Positions 1 to 10,674 are shown, numbered from the stretch's first letter. The stretch is DNA of 10,674 nt from Acanthopleuribacteraceae bacterium (GCA_041940685.1 JBGTRP010000180.1:1-10674), one strand, 5' to 3'. The notes: generated by a model not told the origin, from the letters alone. A program made the numbers and translations.

Positions 1-30
1 TGGCAAAAGACCGGCGCTAAGGTGAGGGAG

Positions 31-450
31 ATGCTTGCCAAACGAGCCACCCATGTGTACCTGCTGGAGCCGGTCGAGGCCGGGGACCGCTTTCCCGATC
101 GGTTAGAACGACCGGTCGATCCAAAAAAGCCAGGCGTCGTGCTTGCCCAAGTCTTCCTAGCGGATGGGGATATGGCGCAACTGGCAAGGCGGCTTCGTGC
201 TAGGCTAGTACCTGTACTTGAGCGGCGGGGCGCGCGTTTTCTCGGCCTGTTCCGGAGCAGCGACGAGGAAAATAACTTCCCCTACTTGCCCGTGATTCAG
301 GATAAGCGGGTGGTCGTGTGTTTTGCCAGTTTTGAATCGCGAACGATGTGTGAGCGCGTTCGCCAAGCCTGGCGTGGCGTTGCGGAACCCTTGGAAAGTT
401 TCCTCTTGGAGCCGGGACCGCGATCCAGGCTGTATCACCGCGGGGAATGA
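31..450 (+). CDS. Small alpha+beta protein (~140 aa). It weakly resembles the NIPSNAP/dimeric alpha-beta-barrel family, so its function is uncertain. It is translationally coupled to the downstream TetR gene.
   Basis: The ORF track gives 22..450 with a GTG start. An in-frame ATG at 31 sits 5 nt after AAGGTGA (19-25), a good Shine-Dalgarno sequence, so 31 is the likelier start. The C-terminal stretch VVVCFASFESRTMCERVRQAW has the hhhhW/F-x-Y/F-x-S-xxx-R pattern of NIPSNAP/Dabb-like barrels. The stop TGA (448-450) overlaps the ATG of the next gene (447-449). Confidence 0.55.
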   Translation: MLAKRATHVYLLEPVEAGDRFPDRLERPVDPKKPGVVLAQVFLADGDMAQLARRLRARLVPVLERRGARFLGLFRSSDEENNFPYLPVIQDKRVVVCFASFESRTMCERVRQAWRGVAEPLESFLLEPGPRSRLYHRGE

Positions 451-1052
451 GGCAGGCATTGACAACCCTTTCGAGCAAAAGGCGGCGCGGCTCACTTTCA
501 AGCCGCGACCGTTTAATCCAATCCGCGGCCACGCTTTTCTATGAAAGCGGAATCCACCAGACGAGCGTGGACGCGGTGGTTGCCCACGCGGGGTTGACCA
601 AGCCGACCCTTTACGCCCATTTTCCCTCCAAGGATGATCTGATTGAAGCGGTGGCCGAATACCGGGATAAAAATTGGCATGCCGCCATCGAGGCGCGGGT
701 AACCGAGGCCCAAACGCCGGCGGGCAAGTTGTTGGCCGTTTTCGAATTCCTCGAAGATTTTATCGAGGACAGCGGCTTTCGCGGTTGCGCCTTGGTCAAT
801 CTTGCCGTTGAGATTCACAACCCGGTTGGACCGGGCAAGGGCGCCGCCCGCTCGAACAAACAAAAAAACCGCGCCCGCATCAAGCGGCTTGTGCGGGAAG
901 CGGGCCTGATGGAATCCGCGGCGTTGGCCTCGGCGCTTTCCCTGCTGTTCGAGGGGGCGATTGTGACCGCCTATGTTGAGGGCGACGCCGGAGTGGGCAG
1001 AACCGCCCGCCAGGCTGCCGAACACCTGATCCGTAACCGGAGCGAATCGTAA
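447..1052 (+). CDS. TetR/AcrR-family transcriptional regulator
   Basis: The N-terminal helix-turn-helix RDRLIQSAATLFYESGIHQTSVDAVVAHAGLTKPTLYAHFPSKDDLIEAV is the canonical TetR_N signature (T-[ST]-[VI]-xx-[IV]-a-xxaGvs-kgtlY-xhFxsKe-xL). Its length (201 aa) and helical C-terminal ligand domain fit the family. The ATGA overlap with the upstream gene suggests one transcript. Confidence 0.9.
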   Translation: MRQALTTLSSKRRRGSLSSRDRLIQSAATLFYESGIHQTSVDAVVAHAGLTKPTLYAHFPSKDDLIEAVAEYRDKNWHAAIEARVTEAQTPAGKLLAVFEFLEDFIEDSGFRGCALVNLAVEIHNPVGPGKGAARSNKQKNRARIKRLVREAGLMESAALASALSLLFEGAIVTAYVEGDAGVGRTARQAAEHLIRNRSES

Positions 1053-1436: not shown

Positions 1437-4400
1437 CTAATCCTTAGCGGGTTTTGGTCTTGCGGTTTTTTGGGCGCGTCTGGGTTTGGGAGGGTCCAGT
1501 TTTTCGAGAACCTTTTTGAGGTAATCGATGATCAGGCCATGGGTGCCCAGGGAAGCCTTGACCGCGCTTTGTAACTGGCTCACTTGTTTGTCCTGATCGC
1601 GGATGGCCTCGTAGGTGGGTTTGAGCCAGTGCTGCATGATGGTGAACTGCTGGCGAACCACCCGCAGCAGGAACTTGGCTTCTCGGGCGGTGAGCGGCTC
1701 GCCCGCCTCGGCCGTCGGCTGCCGCGAATCCGCTTCTTGCTCCGGGGGCGCCGCTTGTTGCGGCAGGGATTCCACTATGCGCGTGAGGGCTTCCAGGGTG
1801 GGTTTTGAAAGCGCGGTATAGGTACGCATGGGCTTCTTGATACGTTCATTTTCGGCTTCCCTGGAGAGCGCCTGCAAATCGCGCAATTCTTCGATTCCCT
1901 TGTGAAGCGTATCGCGGATGGAGGTGAGCCCCGTACCGAAACCGCTGAGTTGGGCGATCACCTTGCCCATCTTGTCGCCCGATTCGATGCCGAAGAATTG
2001 CTGGCGCCGCTGAAACTCGGTTTTAATTTCTTCCCAGCGGGCGTTTTCCGCCTCAGTCAACACGCCCAGCAGCTCCCTGAACTTGAGCAGATTGGCTTCC
2101 GCCCCGCTGGTAAGCGTTTGCGCCTCGTTTTCGTAGTGCGTGAAGATCAGATTCTCGAGCTCCTCCTCGTTCATGACGGGCAGAACCTTTTCCGAGATTT
2201 TGTTCATGTTGCGGTAGGAGCCCTGCAGCTTGAAGGACGGCTCGGTGCGGTAGGCGTCCTCCTGAGCGGCGGAGCGAATATAGGCCTGGTTCACCCTGAG
2301 GATGACATCGCGCACCCGATAGAGTTTTCGGAGCACGTTGACGAACTCGTTGATTTCCTCGGGCGCGTAGTTGGCTTCCAGCTCTACGCCCTCCCGACTG
2401 CCGGACTCCGCGATGGACATGAGCCCATGCACGTCCTTTTGGCCGTGTGCGGCTAACCTGTTGAGCACCTGATTGGACGTGAGGCTGTTTTCCACATAGC
2501 TCTGCTCGAAGACGGTGGCGTGCTCGCCGATGATATCGCCCAGATTATAGGTGTCCGCGCGGTTGGCCAGCATATCGGGAATCTGAAACTTCTCGCCGCT
2601 TTCGGTATAGGGGTTGCCGGCCATGACCACGCATACCTTTTTGCCGCGCAGGTCATAGGTCTTTGTGCGCCCCTTGTAGACGCCCTCAATCTTGCGTTGC
2701 GCATCGCAGAGTGAGATGAATTTTTGCAGGAATTCGGGATTGCAATGCTGGATATCGTCTAGATAGATCATGATGTTGTCGCCCATTTCCAGGGAAAGGT
2801 TGAGCTTGGCGAGCTCTTCGCGCGCGCTGGAGTGCCGGGCGGTGGCGGGGTCGAGCGCCGTGGCCTCATGACCGATGGCGGGGCCGTTGATTTTCATGAA
2901 AATCAGGCCCAGCCTGTTGGCCACGTACTCCATGAGCGTGGTTTTCCCATAGCCCGGCGGGGAAACCAGCAGCAGCAGGCCCATGCGGTCGGTCCGTTTT
3001 TGGTCGCCGGCCGCGCCGATCTGCTTGGCGAGGTTATCGCCGATCAGGGGAAGGTACACCTGGTCCAGCAATCGGTTGCGCACGAAGGAGGTAAGCACGC
3101 GCGGCTTAAACTCTTCGAGGCGCAACTCGTTTGTAAAGCGCTCTGTCATGGTCTTTTTGAGAGAAACATAATGTTGGAAGGCGGGTAAGGATTCGCGCTT
3201 GAAGCGGGCCAGCTTGCTCATGAAACGGTTGTAATTGAGTCGGTAGACCCCCTTTTTCAGGATTGGGTGATCCCCCTTGAGACCCTCGATGGTTACGGAA
3301 ATCGGGATCTTGCATTCCTGATGGCCGTCGTAGTGGCCGCAAAAGAGCAGGGCCGCCGCCTCGTCGCGGAAGTCCATGCTGTCGGGATGTTTCTCGGCGA
3401 TGTAGGCCGCGGCCCATTCCCGGGTCAGGGCAAAGGCGCGCGCGGGGTCTTTGCCAAGGTCCTTGAGCGCCGACTCAAAATTTTCGTGAGCACCTCGATG
3501 CTTGAGATAGTGAACCAGGCCGCGGTAGATTTCTCCGGCCTCCATGCTCACGGCGAAGCTTGGACCGGCCATCAACTGGTGGAACAGGTAGACCGAGGCT
3601 TCCGGGGCCAGGGAAGCGTCGAAAAGCCGCGAGGTCTCGAGAAAGCGTTCGATCAACCCTCGCAATTCCGCGCCCTGGTCTCCCGCGCCCGCCCCTTCCG
3701 GAAACACGGAGCGCATGGCTTTCAATCCACCGAGGCTGGCTTGAATGCCGCTTTTGGCGCCTTGAGGGCAAAACGCGAACCAAAATACGGCCGCGCAGGC
3801 GCGGGCCTCGGGCGCGTGGGTCAGGAGGCCCAGGGCCTTTTTCATGGCGATTAGCCGCTCCAACAACAGCGCGGCATCCTGGTCGTGAACTCCCTTGGAG
3901 TAGCCCTCCTCGTAGCGTGGCCCCATGAAGCGCCGGACCAGCGCGGTCAGGTCCTCGTGACTCATGGCGGCGTTGGCTTTCAGGCCGGGCTCTTCTCCCT
4001 TTTCAAGGGCTTGCAGCAGGGTGTAGGCCAGAAATTCCGCGCGGTAGACCTCGCCATCTTCCGAGGGCGTCTCCATGCCCCAAACCGGCCTGGTCTCCAG
4101 GAAGGCCGGCTCCTTGATTTCCTCGAAGAAGTTGGTCCCAGTGAGATGGAAAAACTGGTTCTGATCGCGGGCGACCACGGTCAATGCCAAGGACTGGACG
4201 TTCACGGAAAAACGGTGCCGGCCCAGCTTGATGAGGCTGCCGCCCTCCTCGAAGATTTCCCGCTTGTCCTTGAGTTGGCGGACCGCCTCTTCCTTGAGCG
4301 TCTTCAGCCGGCCGCGCACATCGTCGGCCTTGACCGAGTCTTCGAGCTGAACCAGTTGTTCGACGATGTCGCGCACCTTTTCGATCATCATGTCGCCGGC

Positions 4401-6782
4401 GAAGTAGCCATGGATTTCGCTGACGGTTTCAAAGCGAGCCGCCCGGCTTTGGATGCCTTGGAGGATACGTTCGGCCGCGCCGAGCAGCGAGGCGGCCCGT
4501 TTGTTGCGCGATTCAACCAACCTCACCCGGCGCGCCTCGAAGGCGTTGTAAATTTCCTCGCGTTTCTCCGTGAGCAAGCCGATAAATTCGTCGAACTCGG
4601 AGAATTTCCCCTCGAGCTCCTCGATTTGCACCAGCAGTTTGGTGAGGTAGGTTTCGCATTTCTCCGGTTCGTCGCAGATATCCAAATAGTTGATCACACC
4701 CTGGTCGATCAGCTTCATTTGGGCGTTGAATTCGGCCACGCCCTCGGCCTGGCCCAGCTCCTGTCCGCGGTTTTTCAGCGCGGCCCTCGCCCGGTTGAGG
4801 ATGGCGTATATGGCGGAGATGCGATCGATGATGCGGGTCGTTTCGGTGGCGTCCTCGATCTTGAGATTGCTGACGACTTCGATCAATAGCTCAAGATCGG
4901 CAGCGGCTTGATCCAGCTCACGTCCCAAATCATTGGCGGCGCTGGCCCTTTCGATGCCTGGAACGCCCGCCTCCAGCTTTTCGATGCGTTGTTGGTAGGG
5001 ATCGAGCGCCGCGTCTTCCAACAGGAAGGACACGCATCCGGAAGAAAGCTTTTCGGTTTGGGCCAGAGCCTCTTTTTCCAATTGCGCGACCTTCTCCTGG
5101 TCCGCGTAACGCCGCTCTCCACTGGCGATGACCTCGCCGCGCAAACCGCGGAGTTCTGCGAGAAAGCCAACAAACTCCTCGATCCCCGTCAAACCGGCCC
5201 GCGCGATCTGACCGAAAAGCTGCTTGGCCTTTTCCGTCACGCGCGCGACCTCTTCGGCCGACGCCTTTTTGAGGCGATTCATCTTGTCGAATTCCTCGAT
5301 GGCGTTGCCGGCGGTCCTTTTGAGCTCCAGCAGCGTTTCTCTCAGGTTGCAGGCCGCGGGTTCCGCCAGCCAGAAATAAGCATCGTTAATGGCCGTGGTC
5401 TTCTTGACCAGGTCCAGGTACAGATTCGGGTAGGGGTCCTGGCGACGGAGCAGGCTCAGCACCTCGTGGCACTCTGCCATGCAGCGCACCACATCTTTGT
5501 TGCCGATCTTGTAGAGCTCGGATTCCTGATGAGCCGGAGGCTGATAGTTGGGGCTGACGTAGGGGGTTTGCCAGACCTGGAGGGCGTGGTGTTTCTGGGG
5601 TTCCTCCTCGGGTTTGAAAAAAATCAAAACGCCGTCCTGAAAAATGCTGTAACCGCCGCAGACGATGGGCGCTTCGACCTTTTGTTCGATGAGGTTGTAA
5701 GAAAGCAGAATGTAGAGGCCCTCATAGCGGTTGTAGAAGACGTAGAGGTAGTCCTCGCCGTTGGGAGCGGCGATGCGCTTCTCGAAAACCATGTCGCGCA
5801 AATGGCTGTCGAACTGTTTGAGCTCGCCCGAAATGAGATAGTAGCCACGGGGAAAGATCAGGCCATGGTCGTCGGGCAGGAGCACGCAGGAGTCCGCGAT
5901 GGCGTCGATTCGGTTGGCTTCCTGAAGATTCTCGTTGTAGAGGTAAAATCGATGGTCCTTTTCCTGGTAGGGGAGAATTCTCAAGAGGATGATCGGCCCT
6001 ATGGTGGCATAGGCGATTTCGGCGTCGTCGAGGGTTTGGTCCTGGTTTTCCACGGGCTCGCTCAAGATGCCCGAGCCCGTATCCGTATTGTCCTCGATCT
6101 TGATGGTGAGATCGCCGCCCGTGGTTTCCACGAAGAGTCGATCCTCGATGGACACATGCGGGAAACGGCCCATGCGTTGGTCGTCGCGGCGCGCCCGTTT
6201 CCACTCGAATTCGTGTTGAGCCGGGTAACGGAGCTCGTGATCGCTGCGGTTGTCCAGGTAGACCAGGGCGCCGTCCTTGATCAACCATTTAAAGGTTTTA
6301 AAATCGTTGATGGATTTGCCCGTGCGGAATTTCATGAACAGATGCGGGCCGATGATCGAGAATTTGGCGAATTCGGTGTCGCGGTAATACTTGTATAGCC
6401 CGAGAAAGTCGCGCTCGAAATCCGAGTTCCGGATCAGGTCCAAATCCAGCTCGTGAAATTCTTCTTCGCGGAATTCGTAAACCGCGAACACATCCTTGAG
6501 CCCAAGCCCGGAGCGAAGGCCCATGTGAACGTTATAGCCGAAAATGAACTTGCCGCCGATGGAGACGATGTCCCTGGACTCGCAATTGTTGGAGGTCGTG
6601 ATGCGTTGGCTGCTCTTGAGTTGCGTCTCGATGGAGCCGAAGGCCTGCTTGCGGGCCAGGTTTAGGTCTTCCAGCCGTTTCCCCAAGATCCTGGCTTGTT
6701 TCTCCAGCCGGCCTCGGATCACCTCGTAGGTGCCCCCTTCCATTTGGCCATCCGGGATAGGTTTTTTGGGTTGATCAGCCAA
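1437..6782 (-). CDS. Giant (1781 aa) soluble protein with one MoxR/AAA_5-type AAA+ ATPase module. The N-terminal ~450 aa are beta-rich, and ~500 aa of coiled-coil/helical sequence follow. The C-terminal ~330 aa are helical and end in a Pro/Lys/Arg-rich tail. Function unknown.
   Basis: A single uninterrupted 5.3-kb ORF. The Walker A motif is LLLVSPPGYGKTTL (Lys1280, nt ~2943-2945). The Walker B motif is NIMIYLDDIQH (Asp1342/1343, nt 2754-2759). Downstream, KVCVVMAGNPYTESGEKFQIPDMLANRADTYNLGD matches the MoxR/AAA_5 pattern (h-h-h-A-T-x-NP ... P-x-x-L-x-DR-F), i.e. sensor-1 Asn plus Arg finger. I saw no transmembrane segments. The tool start is TTG at 6782, preceded by GGGAG 7 nt upstream. The alternative ATG at 6743 (Met14) has a weaker ribosome-binding site. 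Confidence 0.9.
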   Translation of the reverse strand: MADQPKKPIPDGQMEGGTYEVIRGRLEKQARILGKRLEDLNLARKQAFGSIETQLKSSQRITTSNNCESRDIVSIGGKFIFGYNVHMGLRSGLGLKDVFAVYEFREEEFHELDLDLIRNSDFERDFLGLYKYYRDTEFAKFSIIGPHLFMKFRTGKSINDFKTFKWLIKDGALVYLDNRSDHELRYPAQHEFEWKRARRDDQRMGRFPHVSIEDRLFVETTGGDLTIKIEDNTDTGSGILSEPVENQDQTLDDAEIAYATIGPIILLRILPYQEKDHRFYLYNENLQEANRIDAIADSCVLLPDDHGLIFPRGYYLISGELKQFDSHLRDMVFEKRIAAPNGEDYLYVFYNRYEGLYILLSYNLIEQKVEAPIVCGGYSIFQDGVLIFFKPEEEPQKHHALQVWQTPYVSPNYQPPAHQESELYKIGNKDVVRCMAECHEVLSLLRRQDPYPNLYLDLVKKTTAINDAYFWLAEPAACNLRETLLELKRTAGNAIEEFDKMNRLKKASAEEVARVTEKAKQLFGQIARAGLTGIEEFVGFLAELRGLRGEVIASGERRYADQEKVAQLEKEALAQTEKLSSGCVSFLLEDAALDPYQQRIEKLEAGVPGIERASAANDLGRELDQAAADLELLIEVVSNLKIEDATETTRIIDRISAIYAILNRARAALKNRGQELGQAEGVAEFNAQMKLIDQGVINYLDICDEPEKCETYLTKLLVQIEELEGKFSEFDEFIGLLTEKREEIYNAFEARRVRLVESRNKRAASLLGAAERILQGIQSRAARFETVSEIHGYFAGDMMIEKVRDIVEQLVQLEDSVKADDVRGRLKTLKEEAVRQLKDKREIFEEGGSLIKLGRHRFSVNVQSLALTVVARDQNQFFHLTGTNFFEEIKEPAFLETRPVWGMETPSEDGEVYRAEFLAYTLLQALEKGEEPGLKANAAMSHEDLTALVRRFMGPRYEEGYSKGVHDQDAALLLERLIAMKKALGLLTHAPEARACAAVFWFAFCPQGAKSGIQASLGGLKAMRSVFPEGAGAGDQGAELRGLIERFLETSRLFDASLAPEASVYLFHQLMAGPSFAVSMEAGEIYRGLVHYLKHRGAHENFESALKDLGKDPARAFALTREWAAAYIAEKHPDSMDFRDEAAALLFCGHYDGHQECKIPISVTIEGLKGDHPILKKGVYRLNYNRFMSKLARFKRESLPAFQHYVSLKKTMTERFTNELRLEEFKPRVLTSFVRNRLLDQVYLPLIGDNLAKQIGAAGDQKRTDRMGLLLLVSPPGYGKTTLMEYVANRLGLIFMKINGPAIGHEATALDPATARHSSAREELAKLNLSLEMGDNIMIYLDDIQHCNPEFLQKFISLCDAQRKIEGVYKGRTKTYDLRGKKVCVVMAGNPYTESGEKFQIPDMLANRADTYNLGDIIGEHATVFEQSYVENSLTSNQVLNRLAAHGQKDVHGLMSIAESGSREGVELEANYAPEEINEFVNVLRKLYRVRDVILRVNQAYIRSAAQEDAYRTEPSFKLQGSYRNMNKISEKVLPVMNEEELENLIFTHYENEAQTLTSGAEANLLKFRELLGVLTEAENARWEEIKTEFQRRQQFFGIESGDKMGKVIAQLSGFGTGLTSIRDTLHKGIEELRDLQALSREAENERIKKPMRTYTALSKPTLEALTRIVESLPQQAAPPEQEADSRQPTAEAGEPLTAREAKFLLRVVRQQFTIMQHWLKPTYEAIRDQDKQVSQLQSAVKASLGTHGLIIDYLKKVLEKLDPPKPRRAQKTARPKPAKD
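2560..3070 (-). other. AAA+ ATPase core of the giant protein (Walker A, Walker B, sensor-1/Arg-finger region)
   Basis: Motif positions were read directly from the translation and are listed in the feature above. The family assignment (MoxR/AAA_5-like rather than classic-clade AAA) rests on the GNP...DMLANRAD arrangement. Confidence 0.75.
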
Positions 6783-6893
6783 CTCGTTGCTCCCATCGCG
6801 GGCCGCCGCCCCGCGAAGTGATTGGCGGCGCGGCCCCGGTTACGCGCGGCGCGGATTTTCCGCTAGCCGCTTTTGGATTCGGGTGTGGACGCG

Positions 6894-8966
6894 TTACTTT
6901 TCGATGATTTCCGCGGAGTGCCCACCCAGACCCAGTTTCTCTACCCAGGAGAGGATCTTTTTCAGGCCCTCGCGTTCTGAATCCTTTTCGGTGAGTCCGA
7001 TCCATTTGGAGATCAGGGCGGCAAGCGAAATGTTTTTCAGGTCCTCGGAGCTCATCCCGAATTTGGAGACAAAGCTTCTGAGTTGCTGCTTGAATTCCTC
7101 GCCGTCGCCGGTAAAGAAGGTTTCCTTGATATCGCCCAAGACCCGGCTATTGTCCACCAGCCTGTCCACGGACTTGCCCTGGGTGACGGCGCCCACAATC
7201 TTCTCGAAGAACATGGATTCTCCGCCCACGATATCGATCTTGGCGGCCTTGAGCGCCTCGCGGATCACCGATGCCTGAGCCTCGGCGATTTCTTTCTGGA
7301 TGCCGATCTGCGAGAGCTCGATTTCCTTTTCCTTCATGAGCCTGAGCTTAAATTCCTCGTGATCGCGGCCCGCGCCGTCGAAAAGGCGCATGGCCTCGGC
7401 CTTTTCCTTGATGCCGGTGGCCTCTGACTGATATTTCTTGAGCAGCACATTGGCCTCGGTTTCGCCCTCGCGCTCCTTGGCCTCCGCCTTGGCCTGAATG
7501 CCACTGGCCTCGGCGAGGTATTTCTTCTCCAGTACCGTGGCTTCGGCGATGCCCTGCATCTCGGTGGCGTGGGCCTTGGCCTCCATCACTTGAGTTTCCG
7601 CGAGCCCGATGGCGGCCTCCTCCGCGGCTTGGGCCTCTGCAAGGAACTTACGCGCCTCCGCGTTCTTGTCCGCGGCCTTCTGGCCGGCTTCCGCCTCGAT
7701 GATTTTTTGTTCGGCCTCGAGCTCCGCCGCCCGTTTCTCGGCCTCGGCCGCCTTGATCGTTTTGACCAGGGACTCCTCGGCTTCCTTTTGCGCTTGTGTG
7801 ACGGCCACCTGCTTGCCGCGGTCGGCTTCCGCGAAGGCTCGCGTATCCTTGATCTTTTCCTCTTCCTGGACGACCGCCTTTTCCACCACCACCCGTTCGC
7901 GAATGACGTCCTGGATGTTTTTGCGCTCCTCTTCCACCGCCTTTTCTTTCTCGATATTGGCCAGGGTGACGATTCGTTCGCGCTCGACCACCTCCAGCAG
8001 GCGGTCTTTTTCGATGCGCTCGGTTTCGATGGACTCGGTGCGCTGCTTATTCTTCTGCGCCACGATCACCTGGCGTTCCTGGTTTTGGGTGGCGACCTGC
8101 ACCTCTTCATCCGTCTGGATGCGGGCCAACTCGGCCTTGCGCCGTTCTTCCTGTTGGATGCGTTTGGTCTCCGCCTCTTCACGCGCCTTGATGGACTCGA
8201 TTTCCCGCTGTTGCTTCTGTTTGCTCTCCGCCAACTGACGGTCGAGCTCCAGGATGGCCTCCGCGGCCTCCACATCCTGCTGTTTAATGGTCTTGGCGCG
8301 GTCGCGGTCGATTTGGTTGGACAGCACCTTCTGGCGGGAGGTGAGCTCGGTGATTTTTTTGATGCCCTCGGCGTCGAGAATATTGTCGGGACTCAGGTGG
8401 CCGAGCTCCGTTTGCTCCAGGTAATCAATGGCGCAATCCTCGAGCACATAACCGCTGAGATCGGTGCCGATCACCTGGAGGATCTCCTCCTTGAAGCGCT
8501 GGCGCGATTGATAGAGCTCCACGAAATCGAAGTTCTTACCCACGGTTTTAAGCGCCTCCGAGAACTTGGCGTCGAACAGCTCTTCCAGGGCGGACTGATT
8601 GGAGGCGCGCTGGGTGCCGATGGATTGGGCGACGTCCATGACCGATTGTTCGGTGTTGTTGATGCGCATGAAAAAGGCGACCTTGATGTCGGCGCGCATA
8701 TTGTCCCGGCAAACAAGGCCGTCGGTGCCGCTGCGCTGTATCTCGATGCGCTTGACGGAAATGTCCATAATCTCCAGCCGCCGAAAAATGGGGATCACCA
8801 GGAGCCCGCTGAAGGAAACCTTGGGTTTGGCGCCTCCGGTAAGGATCAGCGCCTTGCCCTGCTCGGCCTTGACATAAAACTTCTTGTAAAAGGCCGCGAT
8901 GCCTATCAGCATGAAAACAATGCTAACGCCGATCACAATAAAGAGATTTCCGAATAATTCCGCCAT
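6894..8966 (-). CDS. Flotillin-family SPFH/band-7 protein (YqiK/FloT-like), unusually long at ~690 aa
   Basis: The N-terminal hydrophobic segment LFGNLFIVIGVSIVFMLIGIAAFY is a membrane anchor. An SPFH domain follows (ALILTGGAKPKVSFSGLLVIPIFRRLEIMDISVKRIEIQ...DNMRADIKVAFFMRINN...). After it comes a very long Glu/Ala/Lys-rich coiled coil with flotillin-type EA repeats. The ORF track starts at TTG 8987, but the in-frame ATG at 8966 (MAELFGNLF) sits 6 nt after GGAGG, so I place the start there. That start is 1 nt downstream of the nfeD stop (TGAcATG), which indicates translational coupling. Confidence 0.9.
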   Translation of the reverse strand: MAELFGNLFIVIGVSIVFMLIGIAAFYKKFYVKAEQGKALILTGGAKPKVSFSGLLVIPIFRRLEIMDISVKRIEIQRSGTDGLVCRDNMRADIKVAFFMRINNTEQSVMDVAQSIGTQRASNQSALEELFDAKFSEALKTVGKNFDFVELYQSRQRFKEEILQVIGTDLSGYVLEDCAIDYLEQTELGHLSPDNILDAEGIKKITELTSRQKVLSNQIDRDRAKTIKQQDVEAAEAILELDRQLAESKQKQQREIESIKAREEAETKRIQQEERRKAELARIQTDEEVQVATQNQERQVIVAQKNKQRTESIETERIEKDRLLEVVERERIVTLANIEKEKAVEEERKNIQDVIRERVVVEKAVVQEEEKIKDTRAFAEADRGKQVAVTQAQKEAEESLVKTIKAAEAEKRAAELEAEQKIIEAEAGQKAADKNAEARKFLAEAQAAEEAAIGLAETQVMEAKAHATEMQGIAEATVLEKKYLAEASGIQAKAEAKEREGETEANVLLKKYQSEATGIKEKAEAMRLFDGAGRDHEEFKLRLMKEKEIELSQIGIQKEIAEAQASVIREALKAAKIDIVGGESMFFEKIVGAVTQGKSVDRLVDNSRVLGDIKETFFTGDGEEFKQQLRSFVSKFGMSSEDLKNISLAALISKWIGLTEKDSEREGLKKILSWVEKLGLGGHSAEIIEK
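7400..7600 (-). repeat. Intragenic tandem duplication (~33 codons x2) in the flotillin coiled-coil tail
   Basis: Protein repeats TEATVLEKKYLAEASGIQAKAEA and TEANVLLKKYQSEATGIKEKAEA. The corresponding DNA units are both of the form ggcctcgg...gtatttcttc/gag...ggcctcc. Confidence 0.6.
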
Positions 8967-8967
8967 G

Positions 8968-9654
8968 TCAGTCCTCCCACGCATCAAAATGTTCTACATA
9001 ATAAAAATTCGCGGCCGCATCCTTCTCGATGATCAGGGCCCGGCTCCCCTTGGGGAGCTTTTCACCAGGGCGCGTTCTCACGTTCACCACGAAGGGCGAG
9101 CCATCCGTGATGACCCTGCCTTGCGCCAGGCGAGACTCATCCGCGTCCGACAACAGAGTGCAAACCTGACCTTGCACGCTGCTGAGAGCCTTGCCGCCCA
9201 CTCCCGCGAATAGCTTCGCCAACGGCGTGGTTACCAGCTTGGTGAGCAAGACGCCGCCCAATAAAATGGGGATATAAGTCAGGAACGCCACCCAATCGAG
9301 GGGCGCCGGCCACGCGATCCGGATGACCATGGCAAGGGTCCAAAGGCTCAGGCTGAAAATACTGATGACCACCATGAACGGGATCGCGCCGATATTGAAA
9401 AAGGTAAGCACATCCGCCAGGTGGCCCGGATCGGCATGCAGATCGGCGTCCGCGTCAAGGTCCGAGTGGAGATCCATATCGGCATGAAGGTCTACATCCA
9501 AATCAGGACCCTGATGGCCGTCCAAATGAAAATCGAGGAAATCCAGGTCCAGCGCGCCGATAATGACCCCCAGCCAATAGACCATCACCAGGCCAAGGAA
9601 CAGAGTAAACGGCAGGTTTATGGTGGTCGTGGCCGCCTGCCAGAGCTCCAGCAT
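8968..9654 (-). CDS. NfeD/YqiJ-like inner-membrane protein. It is the short NfeD form, with an OB-fold C-terminus and no protease domain. It is the upstream partner of the flotillin gene.
   Basis: There are three predicted transmembrane helices (TTTINLPFTLFLGLVMVYWLGVIIGAL; VLTFFNIGAIPFMVVISIFSLSLWTLAMVI; WVAFLTYIPILLGGVLLTKLV). The C-terminal soluble domain GQVCTLLSDADESRLAQGRVITDGSPFVVNVRTRPGEKLPKGSRALIIEKD is typical of the NfeD beta-barrel. Gene order, with nfeD directly upstream of and overlapping a flotillin gene, matches the yqiJ-yqiK and nfeD2-floT pairs. The ATG at 9654 is preceded by AGGAGGAG. Confidence 0.85.
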   Translation of the reverse strand: MLELWQAATTTINLPFTLFLGLVMVYWLGVIIGALDLDFLDFHLDGHQGPDLDVDLHADMDLHSDLDADADLHADPGHLADVLTFFNIGAIPFMVVISIFSLSLWTLAMVIRIAWPAPLDWVAFLTYIPILLGGVLLTKLVTTPLAKLFAGVGGKALSSVQGQVCTLLSDADESRLAQGRVITDGSPFVVNVRTRPGEKLPKGSRALIIEKDAAANFYYVEHFDAWED

Positions 9655-9959: not shown

Positions 9960-10674
9960 CTATTCGTACATGGACTCGATCACGGATGTGTACTTCTGGT
10001 TGACCACCTTGCGCTTGACCTTCATGCTGGGCGTGAGCTCGCCGCCCTCCACGGATAGAATTTCCGGGATGATGGTGAATTTCTTGACCCGCTCGTAGTG
10101 GGCGAACCCGTTCATCTGTTTTTCGATCTCCGTCTCAATGAGCTTCAGAAAATCGGGGTTTTGAGAGAGGGCGATGGGGTCGGTTGGCCAAGCCTTGGCC
10201 GGGGCCCACTCCTCGACGTTCTCCCAAGGCGGCATAATGAGCGCCGAAACGAAATTGCGTTTGTCGCCGATGATGACGGCCTGCTCAATCATGGGGCTCA
10301 GCTTGAGGGCGTTTTCCAGGGGCTGTGGCGCAATGTTCTTTCCTCCCGAGGTGACGATGAGATCCTTTTTGCGGTCCGTGATGGTGAGGTAGTTGTCCTC
10401 GTCCAGGACACCAATATCGCCGGTATGAAACCAGCCGTCCACGATCGCCTCGGCCGTGGAGGAGCAGGCCGCGACCACGAGCGAGATCGCTCGCTCGGGA
10501 AGAAACTCGACGTGAAACAGCTTCTCCGAGAGTGAAACAAATGGATTCGTCGGCAACCCTGGCTGCGACGGCGTGAGCATCCACGTGAGCAGTTCCCAGC
10601 GTGAGACTCGGTCCACCGGTCCCGGGGCGCTGCTGTAGATCGTGTGTGCAAAGAACGCAGCCAGGAACGCAACT
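9960..10674 (-). CDS. Long-chain fatty-acid--CoA ligase (AMP-dependent synthetase), C-terminal ~235 aa only. The gene continues beyond the window edge.
   Basis: The C-terminal-domain motifs [10 protein letters not shown]...[26 protein letters not shown]...[21 protein letters not shown]...[13 protein letters not shown]...[10 protein letters not shown] are conserved in ACSL/FadD-type enzymes. The frame stays open to 10674, so the ORF-track start at 10616 is an internal GTG. Confidence 0.8.

Follow-up and report, generated by a model that had tools for sequence, protein, structure and literature searches.

A giant DUF3686 AAA+ ATPase encoded with a YqiJ/YqiK-type NfeD-flotillin pair: a PspA-less member of an already described operon family

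An operon joining an NfeD-like protein, a flotillin and a very large AAA+ ATPase has been described in a comparative-genomics study of membrane-stress systems (Ravi et al. 2024, mSystems 9:e00847-23; PMC11237479). In Bacteroidota this trio was found together with CesT/Tir and PspA, in the order CesT/Tir-PspA-YqiJ/YuaF-Band-7/flotillin-(beta-propeller + coiled-coil + AAA+). Abbreviated operons without PspA were reported to be 'more widely distributed', and chaperone-like assembly roles at the inner leaflet were proposed (PMC11237479). The description takes one paragraph and contains no census, structure or experiment. The ATPase is linked there neither to the MoxR/dynein clade nor to Pfam DUF3686, a term not found in the one supplementary file searched. 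A pair homologous to the first two core genes, in the same order, is also known as yqiJ-yqiK in E. coli and yuaF-floT in B. subtilis (SPFH2 group; Hinderhofer et al. 2009, PMC2636767). In E. coli, yqiK is followed by the sib/ibs toxin-antitoxin loci and hldE, with no giant AAA+ gene.

The stretch of DNA analysed here (10,674 nt, hereafter the window) carries on its minus strand a YqiJ-type NfeD gene, then a YqiK-type flotillin gene, then the gene of a 1781-aa giant protein. The features of the locus are listed below.

8968-9654, minus strand: NfeD-like ORF, 228 aa, YqiJ/DUF1449 type
9550-9615, minus strand: NfeD-like TM1
9421-9549, minus strand: NfeD-like acidic D-x-D repeat loop
9217-9405, minus strand: NfeD-like TM2 and TM3
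8977-9183, minus strand: NfeD-like C-terminal beta-rich soluble domain
8964-8970, minus strand: TGAcATG stop/start junction from the NfeD-like to the flotillin-like gene, preceded by a GGGAGGA ribosome-binding motif
6894-8966, minus strand: flotillin-like ORF, 690 aa, ATG at 8966, stop at 6894
8886-8954, minus strand: flotillin-like N-terminal TM
about 8322-8879, minus strand: flotillin-like SPFH domain
about 7287-8321, minus strand: flotillin-like long E/A/K-rich coiled coil
6897-7286, minus strand: flotillin-like conserved C-terminal region
6783-6893, minus strand: GC-rich intergenic spacer between flotillin and giant, 111 nt (150 nt with the ATG at 6743 as start)
1437-6782, minus strand: giant ORF, 1781 aa, TTG start, GGGAG Shine-Dalgarno-like motif 8 nt upstream
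447-1052, plus strand: TetR-family regulator gene (Pfam TetR_N, E=2e-16), convergent

The window shares with the operon of Ravi et al. the three core genes, their order and their domain architectures: a 3TM YqiJ/YuaF-type gene lies immediately upstream, and the protein in the middle combines a TM, a Band-7/SPFH domain and a coiled coil. The author of a preliminary description of this DNA knew of no described flotillin-associated giant ATPase of this architecture; that claim of novelty falls, since the trio, including its abbreviated form, is already in PMC11237479. The full form has the CesT/Tir-PspA dyad upstream, whereas phmmer searches with Bacteroidota queries found no CesT/Tir, PspA or LexA-like regulator within the 10.7 kb of the window. 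The 10.7-kb contig is the whole view of this genome, and the absence of PspA holds for the window alone. Bacteroidota loci, including those of Flavobacteriaceae, reproduce the full form. Their equivalence to the Dokdonia donghaensis exemplar is inferred from identical order and architecture in five Flavobacteriaceae loci (L037, L042, L049, L069 and L077). The window locus is thus an ordinary member of an already described family, in its PspA-less form.

The gene calls and coordinates of the preliminary description agreed with ours, as did the 111-nt gap and the convergent TetR gene. The TGAcATG that it gave between the NfeD-like and flotillin-like genes is also real: direct reading of the junction gave ...GGGAGGAC TGA C ATG.... 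The flotillin-like ORF is identical to public gene call P0121, and the public call for the giant (P0001, 1768 aa) takes the in-frame ATG at 6743 (residue 14) as start. In the spacer 6783-6893, neither a sigma-70 promoter consensus nor an intrinsic-terminator consensus was found, the folding energy was no better than that of shuffled sequence (z=-0.11), and no Rfam family or tRNA was detected. The TetR gene is context only; it marks the downstream end of the operon and is not conserved beside the trio in other loci.

Profile comparison assigned the first two proteins to the YqiJ/YqiK type, as had been proposed. The NfeD-like profile (27 orthologues) aligned to E. coli YqiJ over 177 columns (hhalign probability 96.7%, E=3.6e-10), and the protein matched Pfam YqiJ_N weakly (E=0.008). 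The sole PDB match of this profile was the soluble domain of B. subtilis YuaF (2k14, E=0.23). The protein has three hydrophobic segments, as in YqiJ/YuaF-type members, and its Hymenobacter orthologue is annotated 'DUF1449 family protein'. The flotillin-like protein gave no Pfam, NCBIfam or PADLOC match, with the Band_7 and Flot models below significance, so its identity was shown by comparison with E. coli YqiK. Its profile (28 orthologues) aligned to YqiK with a probability of 100% (E=1.2e-40, 393 columns, 31% identity) across the TM, the SPFH domain and the coiled coil. One N-terminal TM anchor, an SPFH domain and an E/A-rich coiled coil follow the YqiK/FloT layout. At 690 aa, the window protein is longer than E. 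coli YqiK (553 aa) and too divergent for Pfam Band_7/Flot; a few close homologues carry Band_7 (PF01145), and NCBI, UniProt and JGI name its homologues 'flotillin family protein / YqiK'. The SPFH protein QmcA (8z5g) was a weak PDB match (E=7e-4). Solved SPFH relatives form large assemblies, such as the QmcA-YbbJ 26-mer (as cited in PMC13086221) and a flotillin 44-mer (PMC13000311). By analogy with them, the window flotillin would form a large oligomeric cage or microdomain.

Starting from the giant, we quantified conservation of the trio in 80 genome loci from at least eight phyla. A flotillin-like gene lies directly upstream on the same strand in 62 of the 65 loci with at least 2.4 kb upstream (about 95%), and an NfeD-like gene is present too in 55 of the 61 with at least 4.5 kb. 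The adjacency of giant, flotillin and NfeD is far beyond chance, and the module proposed from this one locus is a conserved one; the missing enrichment beside SPFH/NfeD genes that the preliminary description named as refuting it was not observed. A search starting from flotillin likewise found the giant downstream in Calditrichia. Across related loci the NfeD-to-flotillin gap has a median of 38 nt (<=100 nt in 49/57), and the flotillin-to-giant gap a median of 177 nt (<=200 nt in 36/69). The tight spacing (TGAcATG in the window, short median gaps in the family), the census and the lack of a terminator or promoter consensus in the spacer all count for the trio as one membrane-maintenance operon. 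Unrelated small genes, whose identity varies by locus (in some loci AbiEii, PD-(D/E)XK, DUF559 or DMP19), separate flotillin and giant in 27/69 loci. Tight co-translation of these two genes is therefore not required. The giant stands alone, with no flotillin beside it, in 3/65 loci (L020, L022 and L038), and the NfeD-flotillin pair occurs without the giant in a Cloacimonetes locus (L085) and in E. coli; therefore neither side strictly needs the other.

Upstream of the trio in Bacteroidota we found PspA in 19 loci, CesT_Tir_1 in 17, and a divergent LexA-like regulator, a CI/LexA-like HTH-S24 repressor, in 17. In annotated records of Hymenobacter and of the Pseudomonas megaplasmid pQBR103, which carries one copy, genes for a CesT/Tir-type chaperone and PspA likewise precede the trio. 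The flanks otherwise hold ordinary metabolic and regulatory genes; no conserved candidate client gene was found beyond PspA and CesT, and no VWA/MIDAS partner was seen among the window proteins or the annotated neighbours. Homologues were absent from 50,697 phage records and present in 13 of 72,556 plasmid records, mostly megaplasmids, chromids or mislabelled chromosomes.

The giant had been described as soluble, with one MoxR/AAA_5-type ATPase module, and both points held. No membrane segment was predicted (highest 19-residue Kyte-Doolittle mean 1.39), and the AAA/AAA_5 match occurs once, at residues 1270-1395. Its Pfam matches are DUF3686 (E=2.8e-178), DUF7902 (E=8.6e-28), AAA (E=2.7e-6) and AAA_5 (E=1.4e-5). 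More than 4900 homologues were found at E<=1e-10, and identity across phyla is 50-62% over about 1700 residues. AlphaFold2 models covered residues 1-880 (mean pLDDT 85.7) and 840-1660 (mean pLDDT 84.8). The parts of the giant are as follows.

5568-6623, minus strand: N-terminal beta-propeller, residues 54-405, about 27 strands, preceded by a helix at residues 13-48
4254-5519, minus strand: all-helical stalk, residues 422-843, about 420 residues, helices of up to 58 residues in the AlphaFold2 model
4761-5009, minus strand: Pfam DUF7902 within the stalk, residues 592-674
3339-4043, minus strand: alpha-helical domain between stalk and ATPase in the AlphaFold2 model, residues 914-1148
2265-3074, minus strand: AAA+ module, residues 1237-1506, alpha/beta core and helical lid
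2937-2963, minus strand: Walker A, SPPGYGKTT, in the AAA+ module
2745-2771, minus strand: Walker B, MIYLDDIQH, invariantly Asp-Asp rather than Asp-Glu
1440-1835, minus strand: poorly conserved C-terminal tail, residues 1650-1781, with a Pro/Lys/Arg-rich end

The giant is thus a cytoplasmic protein in which a beta-propeller is followed by a stalk and a further domain, both helical, and by a single MoxR/dynein/midasin-like AAA+ module. Foldseek matched the propeller to WD40, Kelch, prolyl-oligopeptidase, CyRPA and clathrin-terminal-domain propellers in the PDB (E=1e-5 to 1e-4, probability about 1.0). The giant also matched IFT-A and clathrin at TM-scores of about 0.1; the propeller alone probably accounts for these matches. 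For the helical domain at residues 914-1148, no specific structural neighbour was found. In the fold search the AAA+ core was most similar to MoxR, dynein and midasin, with CbbQ and NorQ as the closest structural relatives. Its model has a beta-hairpin before sensor 1 (residues 1364-1377) and, at the position expected for a helix-2 insert, a 14-residue loop with no hairpin; sensor 1 is Asn1390, and Arg1408 is the candidate arginine finger. The tail shows no conservation in the alignment consensus; the shorter orthologues in Bacteroidota, about 1630 aa long, lack it, and alignments to Bacteroidota homologues span only 91% of the query. An SMC/Rad50/SbcC/RecN-like identity was also considered and rejected: the module is a single AAA+, not ABC, and no coiled-coil-split ABC heads were found.

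The giant differs from its relatives in several ways. MoxR proteins (CbbQ, NorQ, RavA) are about 250-500 aa long and usually accompany a VWA/MIDAS protein, whereas the giant has about 1230 extra N-terminal and 275 extra C-terminal residues, carries DD rather than DE in Walker B, and shows no evident MoxR helix-2 insert in its model. Midasin (Mdn1/Rea1) and dynein concatenate six AAA modules per chain, the giant has one; its binding domain is an N-terminal beta-propeller rather than a C-terminal MIDAS or microtubule-binding domain, and no sequence relationship is detectable outside the AAA core. The Asp-Asp Walker B could mean weak or regulated hydrolysis. By analogy with DnaA-type Walker B motifs, the invariant Asp-Asp pair may point to a slow, switch-like ATPase, not a fast motor.

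We consider it somewhat better than even (about 55%) that the trio serves membrane stress and maintenance, with the ATPase remodelling assemblies of flotillin and, where present, PspA; the mechanism is drawn from analogy. NfeD and flotillin would assemble at the cytoplasmic side of the inner membrane into a large SPFH scaffold or cage, of the kind solved for QmcA-YbbJ, HflK/C and flotillin-1/2. The giant would oligomerise via the ATPase module, a hexamer bearing six propeller-tipped arms being the probable form, and its propellers would dock on the scaffold. It may then spend ATP on opening, dismantling or recycling the flotillin assembly (and PspA where present), or on extracting clients from that assembly under envelope stress. 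It would be to flotillin and PspA in function what Vps4 is to ESCRT-III, with a midasin-like build of binding domain, long linker and AAA+. As with Vps4 and ESCRT-III, the operons with PspA, a member of the ESCRT-III superfamily, couple an AAA+ ATPase genomically to a membrane-remodelling polymer, and Ravi et al. discussed such a role for other PspA-linked ATPases (PMC11237479).

ATP-driven remodelling of flotillin scaffolds, which the preliminary description had suggested, is a reasonable inference by analogy, to which the linkage with PspA, seen in Bacteroidota and on pQBR103, lends further weight. In B. subtilis an SPFH protein links PspA to the membrane (PMC8581546). FloA-NfeD needs no ATP to stabilise unfolded proteins (PMC11222466), and an ATP-dependent partner could still have a place beside it. 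The cross-phylum conservation, absence from phages and rarity on plasmids fit a cellular machine. The lone giants (3/65), the giant-less pairs, the insertions in 27/69 loci, the lack of PspA in the window and the Asp-Asp Walker B count against this reading. A bolder form of it, less likely than not, is that the DUF3686 giant represents a new class of membrane-scaffold remodelling ATPase: a MoxR/midasin-like ring with propeller-tipped helical arms that take hold of flotillin cages and, where present, PspA/ESCRT-III polymers, and open or recycle them mechanically. As a more remote possibility, the propeller-plus-helical build might act as a coat-like membrane element.

The direction of action may instead be reversed, with the flotillin/NfeD scaffold as a platform that recruits and gates the giant, and other membrane clients as its substrates. 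The giant could mature membrane complexes, insert cofactors into them or extract them, as MoxR ATPases do, or the scaffold could select clients, as the HflK/C cage does for FtsH. The gene linkage fits this equally well, a beta-propeller is a generic client-binding module, and the relatives CbbQ and NorQ act by remodelling particular client complexes. Partnerships of an SPFH scaffold with a membrane AAA+ enzyme are established for HflK/C-FtsH and prohibitin-m-AAA (as cited in PMC2636767 and PMC13220708), and the trio is comparable to these by analogy. However, FtsH and m-AAA are membrane-anchored classic-clade proteases inside the cage, and the giant has neither TM anchor nor protease domain and carries a MoxR/dynein-like module. 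With no conserved client candidates beyond PspA and CesT, and the VWA/MIDAS partner of typical MoxR systems missing, we regard the reversed direction as rather unlikely.

Two other readings are less probable still. An anti-phage or conflict system that senses membrane perturbation by infection and triggers remodelling or abortive infection, an idea close to the phage sensing raised in the preliminary description, has in its favour the 'phage shock' name that the PspA linkage recalls, the AbiEii, PD-(D/E)XK, DUF559 or DMP19 insertions, the HTH-S24 repressor of Bacteroidota and the pQBR103 copy. But the inserted genes differ between loci, conservation across phyla is very high, unlike that of fast-evolving defence genes, and the flanks are ordinary. 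Among PADLOC-DB v2 models the only match was IetA (E=0.0026), limited to 29 residues of the giant's Walker A region, with none for the flotillin-like or NfeD-like protein. Together with 0/50,697 phage genomes, the few plasmid records and the lack of a defence link in the literature, this makes such a system improbable, and the phage-sensing idea was not borne out. That the giant is a DNA repair ATPase whose flotillin adjacency is irrelevant is very improbable. NCBI, UniProt and Pfam do call it 'DNA repair ATPase' or 'ATPase involved in DNA repair', RuvB_N and the NCBIfam RuvB model match weakly, over the Walker A region only and far under the cut-off (24.7 bits against 282), and a LexA-family regulator adjoins Bacteroidota loci. 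However, PF12458 is a DUF with no experimental basis, and our literature search found no mention of DUF3686 or PF12458. a profile search of PDB sequences matched nothing beyond the Walker A segment in proteins such as p97 and RuvB, with no SMC, Rad50, RecN or nuclease; fold searches returned propellers and MoxR/dynein AAA+ modules with no DNA-binding domain; and the conserved neighbours are all membrane proteins. The database name is without support.

Flotillins and PspA hold a central place in how bacteria organise and repair their membranes, and the strongly conserved giant ATPase that thousands of genomes encode alongside them is an obvious candidate for the activity that disassembles or regulates them. 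The module has been noted only in passing in one comparative-genomics paper, and its public database name is misleading. The present analysis adds a quantitative census, assigns the folds (propeller, stalk and a MoxR/dynein-like AAA+ module whose Walker B is Asp-Asp), finds copies in hosts that are tractable by experiment (P. fluorescens SBW25 pQBR103, Proteus mirabilis, Hymenobacter and Flavobacterium) and makes the case for correcting the 'DNA repair ATPase' annotation; with these additions the question becomes directly testable. If the bolder form of the remodelling reading is true, the DUF3686 giant would be the first machine dedicated to ATP-driven disassembly of an SPFH scaffold, and would account for how bacteria of at least eight phyla turn over flotillin microdomains and PspA assemblies.

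Three adjacent genes on the minus strand of the window encode an NfeD-like protein, a flotillin-like protein and a 1781-aa AAA+ protein of the DUF3686 family (the giant protein). The window, a complete public contig of 10,674 nt, has the following features:

9960-10616, minus strand, 3' part of an acyl-CoA ligase gene
8968-9654, minus strand, 228-aa ORF (NfeD-like), about 300 nt past the acyl-CoA ligase gene
6894-8966, minus strand, 690-aa ORF (flotillin-like)
1437-6782, minus strand, 1781-aa ORF (giant protein)
447-1052, plus strand, TetR-family gene, converging on the end of the giant ORF
22-450, plus strand, 142-aa ORF upstream of the TetR gene and overlapping its start by 4 nt

No Pfam match was obtained for the 142-aa ORF at E<=0.01. 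The junction of the NfeD-like and flotillin-like ORFs reads ...GGGAGGAC-TGA-C-ATG..., in agreement with the preliminary description. The giant gene has two possible starts. One is the TTG at 6782, which follows a GGGAG motif and leaves a spacer of 111 nt to the flotillin-like gene (6783-6893). The other is an in-frame ATG at 6743 (residue 14), chosen in the public gene call (P0001, 1768 aa), which gives a gap of 150 nt. N-terminal extensions of the giant homologues vary (about 15-20 residues). The best named relatives of the giant protein, at 58-62% identity, come from an Acidobacteriota MAG, Sulfidibacter corallicola and Acanthopleuribacter pedis.

The identity of the flotillin-like protein was settled by profile comparison, and the other searches did not suffice. 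Neither NCBIfam nor PADLOC had a match to the protein, and neither did Pfam, even at E<=10; only marginal matches to PDB sequences were obtained by single-sequence and profile search, the profile weakly matching QmcA. Its conserved C-terminal region (residues 572-660, window 6897-7250) gave a weak, possibly spurious single-sequence match to Listeria Lmo0547 (PDB 4r9n, E=8e-4). When a profile of 28 orthologues from related loci was compared with E. coli K-12 YqiK (from NC_000913.3) by hhalign, the match reached a probability of 100% (E=1.2e-40, 31% identity over 393 columns) and took in the membrane anchor at the N-terminus, the SPFH domain and the coiled coil. Close homologues are publicly named 'flotillin family protein' or 'YqiK', and Pfam Band_7 was found in a few of them. 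Similarly, a 27-sequence profile of the 228-aa protein matched E. coli YqiJ end to end (hhalign, probability 96.7%, E=3.6e-10); its sole PDB match was a weak one to the soluble domain of B. subtilis YuaF (E=0.23), and the Hymenobacter orthologue is named 'DUF1449 family protein' by NCBI. The NfeD-like protein has three hydrophobic segments and a loop with an acidic D-x-D repeat, and the flotillin-like protein has one N-terminal anchor. The profile matches therefore identify the two proteins as a divergent NfeD-flotillin pair of the YqiJ/YqiK type, which is the SPFH2 group of Hinderhofer et al. 2009 (PMC2636767), where no third gene beside the pair is mentioned.

The giant family is large and unusually conserved, with more than 4900 clusters at E<=1e-10 and, across phyla, an identity of 50-62% along some 1700 residues. 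A search with just the N-terminal 880 residues retrieved, at E<=1e-30, 377 representatives of clusters made at 50% identity, and nearly all of the full-length members among them are 1550-2040 aa long. Scanning one genome per species gave at least 568 confirmed loci, and the best 80 of them were used (Bacteroidota 36, Verrucomicrobiota 19, Planctomycetota 12, Clostridia 5, Desulfobacterota 4, Kiritimatiellota 1, Omnitrophota 1, unclassified 2). Their six-frame ORFs were searched with the NfeD-like and flotillin-like proteins of the window. A flotillin-like gene lies directly upstream of the giant gene on the same strand in 62 of the 65 loci having at least 2.4 kb upstream, and an NfeD-like gene is detectable too in 55 of the 61 loci having at least 4.5 kb upstream. 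These results bear out the three-gene module proposed in the preliminary description. The three remaining loci (L020, L022 and L038; 3/65) carry unrelated genes upstream. Starting from flotillin, we found the giant gene immediately downstream in two Calditrichia-type contigs, and the pair without the giant gene in one Cloacimonetes contig as well as in E. coli. At 38-43% identity, more distant homologues of the giant protein were seen in records labelled Proteus, Vibrio, Halomonas, Photobacterium, Pseudomonas (pQBR103), Deinococcus, Streptomyces and Nonomuraea. The EukProt protein set of the dinoflagellate Durusdinium trenchii also contains a homologue (P0112; 1711 aa, 55% identity), which reflects either bacterial contamination or horizontal transfer. 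DUF3686 is also listed in eukaryotes by Pfam.

The spacer between the flotillin-like and giant genes (6783-6893) showed no sigma-70-like promoter and no intrinsic-terminator-like site, and thus no site for independent transcription of the giant gene was seen in its sequence. It matched no Rfam family and folded no better than shuffled controls; a structured RNA, terminator or attenuator was ruled out by these checks. In related loci, the median gap is 38 nt between NfeD and flotillin and 177 nt between flotillin and the giant gene. The latter spacer is 400-2400 nt long and contains unrelated small genes in 27 of 69 related loci (for example L009:8484-9964, L015:7953-9451, L029:9353-9964, L036:9479-9985 and L018:6831-8338). 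The inserted genes differ by lineage and encode DMP19-like plus DUF3997 proteins, an AbiEii toxin, a PD-(D/E)XK (PDDEXK_3) protein, a DUF559 endonuclease-like protein or a lipoprotein. This spacer looks like an insertion hot spot within an otherwise conserved operon. A conserved fourth gene in the gap was ruled out, since the inserts are heterogeneous and cluster only among close relatives.

No membrane segment was predicted in the giant protein. Its Pfam domains are DUF3686 ('ATPase involved in DNA repair', residues 33-470, E=3e-178), DUF7902 (592-674) and AAA/AAA_5 (1270-1395). AlphaFold2 models built on 50-sequence alignments had a mean pLDDT of 85.7 for residues 1-880 and 84.8 for residues 840-1660. 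In these models, a helix at the N-terminus is followed by a beta-rich domain with some 27 strands (54-405) and a long all-helical stalk (422-843). After a small unit of beta structure come an alpha-helical domain (914-1148), the AAA+ module (about 1237-1506) and further C-terminal helices. The Foldseek neighbours of the beta domain are beta-propellers (WD40, Kelch, prolyl-oligopeptidase, CyRPA and the clathrin terminal domain); for the ATPase, RuvB ranked top by E-value and NorQ/CbbQ by target TM-score. The Walker A motif SPPGYGKTT, the sensor-1 Asn1390 and Arg1408 are invariant in the homologues. In the Walker B motif (YLDDIQH, residues 1338-1346, window 2745-2771), Asp replaces the usual catalytic Glu in 50/50 aligned homologues, which may cause slow hydrolysis. 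Two giant homologues, P0054 and P0110, carry ankyrin repeats (PF12796, PF13637 and related) besides DUF3686/AAA, which suggests interchangeable partner-binding modules.

Clustering of flanking ORFs in related loci revealed three recurrent extra genes, all in Bacteroidota. PspA/IM30 (E ~1e-41) immediately precedes the NfeD-like gene in 19 loci, and a CesT_Tir_1 chaperone (E ~1e-54) lies upstream of PspA in 17. The third, present in 17 loci, is a divergent regulator with HTH and peptidase-S24 domains (LexA/CI-like). Examples are L007:3965-6096 and L088:2580-4690, the latter on the Hymenobacter plasmid NZ_CP010056.1, whose annotated record shows the same gene string. The regulator hints that the Bacteroidota operon is de-repressed through its self-cleavage. 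On pQBR103 of P. fluorescens SBW25 (L087, NC_009444.1 84452-105326), the trio closes a run of ten genes in the order YjfI, PspA, rhomboid, DUF2491, DUF350, DUF1190, glutathionylspermidine synthase, NfeD-like, SPFH and 'DNA repair ATPase'; the 217-aa 'hypothetical protein' matched the NfeD profile with a probability of 99.6% (E=2.5e-24). As a well-studied megaplasmid, pQBR103 offers a tractable experimental host. Extended and abbreviated operons with the trio have been described by Ravi et al. 2024 (mSystems; PMC11237479; bioRxiv posting 2020), whose supplementary row for Dokdonia donghaensis has the same gene order, and the pQBR103 cluster fuses two PspA operon classes that these authors kept separate. 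Popp et al. 2022 (PMC9239133) reported PspA with band-7/FloT and NfeD in Acidobacteriota. The window therefore adds one more example of the abbreviated operon, the trio without PspA, and the gene association itself was already known. The preliminary description was right about the module and the ATPase class, but its statement that no flotillin-associated giant ATPase had been described was wrong. The literature search found no experimental work on the association.

Our results established a conserved linkage, two membrane partners, a cytoplasmic multi-domain ATPase of MoxR/dynein-like type and a recurrent coupling to PspA and CesT. By analogy with the dome of the flotillin 44-mer (PMC13000311) and with the QmcA-YbbJ 26-mer (cited in PMC13086221), we propose that NfeD and flotillin would assemble into an SPFH cage or scaffold at the cytoplasmic face. 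The giant protein may oligomerise via its AAA+ module, and its propeller-tipped arms may reach the scaffold. ATP turnover would open, disassemble or recycle flotillin/PspA assemblies, or extract clients. This proposal fits the reported tethering of PspA to the membrane by an SPFH protein in B. subtilis (PMC8581546), the stabilisation of unfolded proteins by FloA-NfeD independently of ATP (PMC11222466), and the remark of Ravi et al. that how PspA homologues that have no associated ATPase regulate assembly is unknown. Its weak points are that the giant gene or the pair can occur alone, that 27/69 loci carry unrelated inserts, and that hydrolysis may be slow with an Asp-Asp Walker B. The main rival assumes the same complex but inverts the roles: the scaffold would serve as a platform that gates the ATPase, and the ATPase would act on different clients, as it does in MoxR systems or HflK/C-FtsH.

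Two other roles are poorly supported. A defence role, including the phage sensing raised in the preliminary description, gained no support from PADLOC, the literature or phage genomes, in which no giant homologue was found. For DNA repair there is the database name 'DNA repair ATPase', but this appears to be an unsupported label, because PDB profile and fold searches found nothing like SMC, Rad50, RecN, a DNA-binding or a nuclease domain, and the literature search found no paper naming DUF3686 or PF12458, nor one joining flotillin to 'DNA repair ATPase'. By the profile and fold searches, a repair function was set aside as an apparent annotation artefact. The name may have arisen from coiled-coil similarity to SbcC-type COG names.

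The giant protein did not fall into a well-characterised family with an unrelated role. This locus would be unsurprising to a specialist, and the public annotation of the giant protein is misleading. Returning to scaffold remodelling, the DUF3686 family is a good and testable candidate for the ATP-driven regulator, so far missing, of flotillin/PspA assemblies in bacteria.
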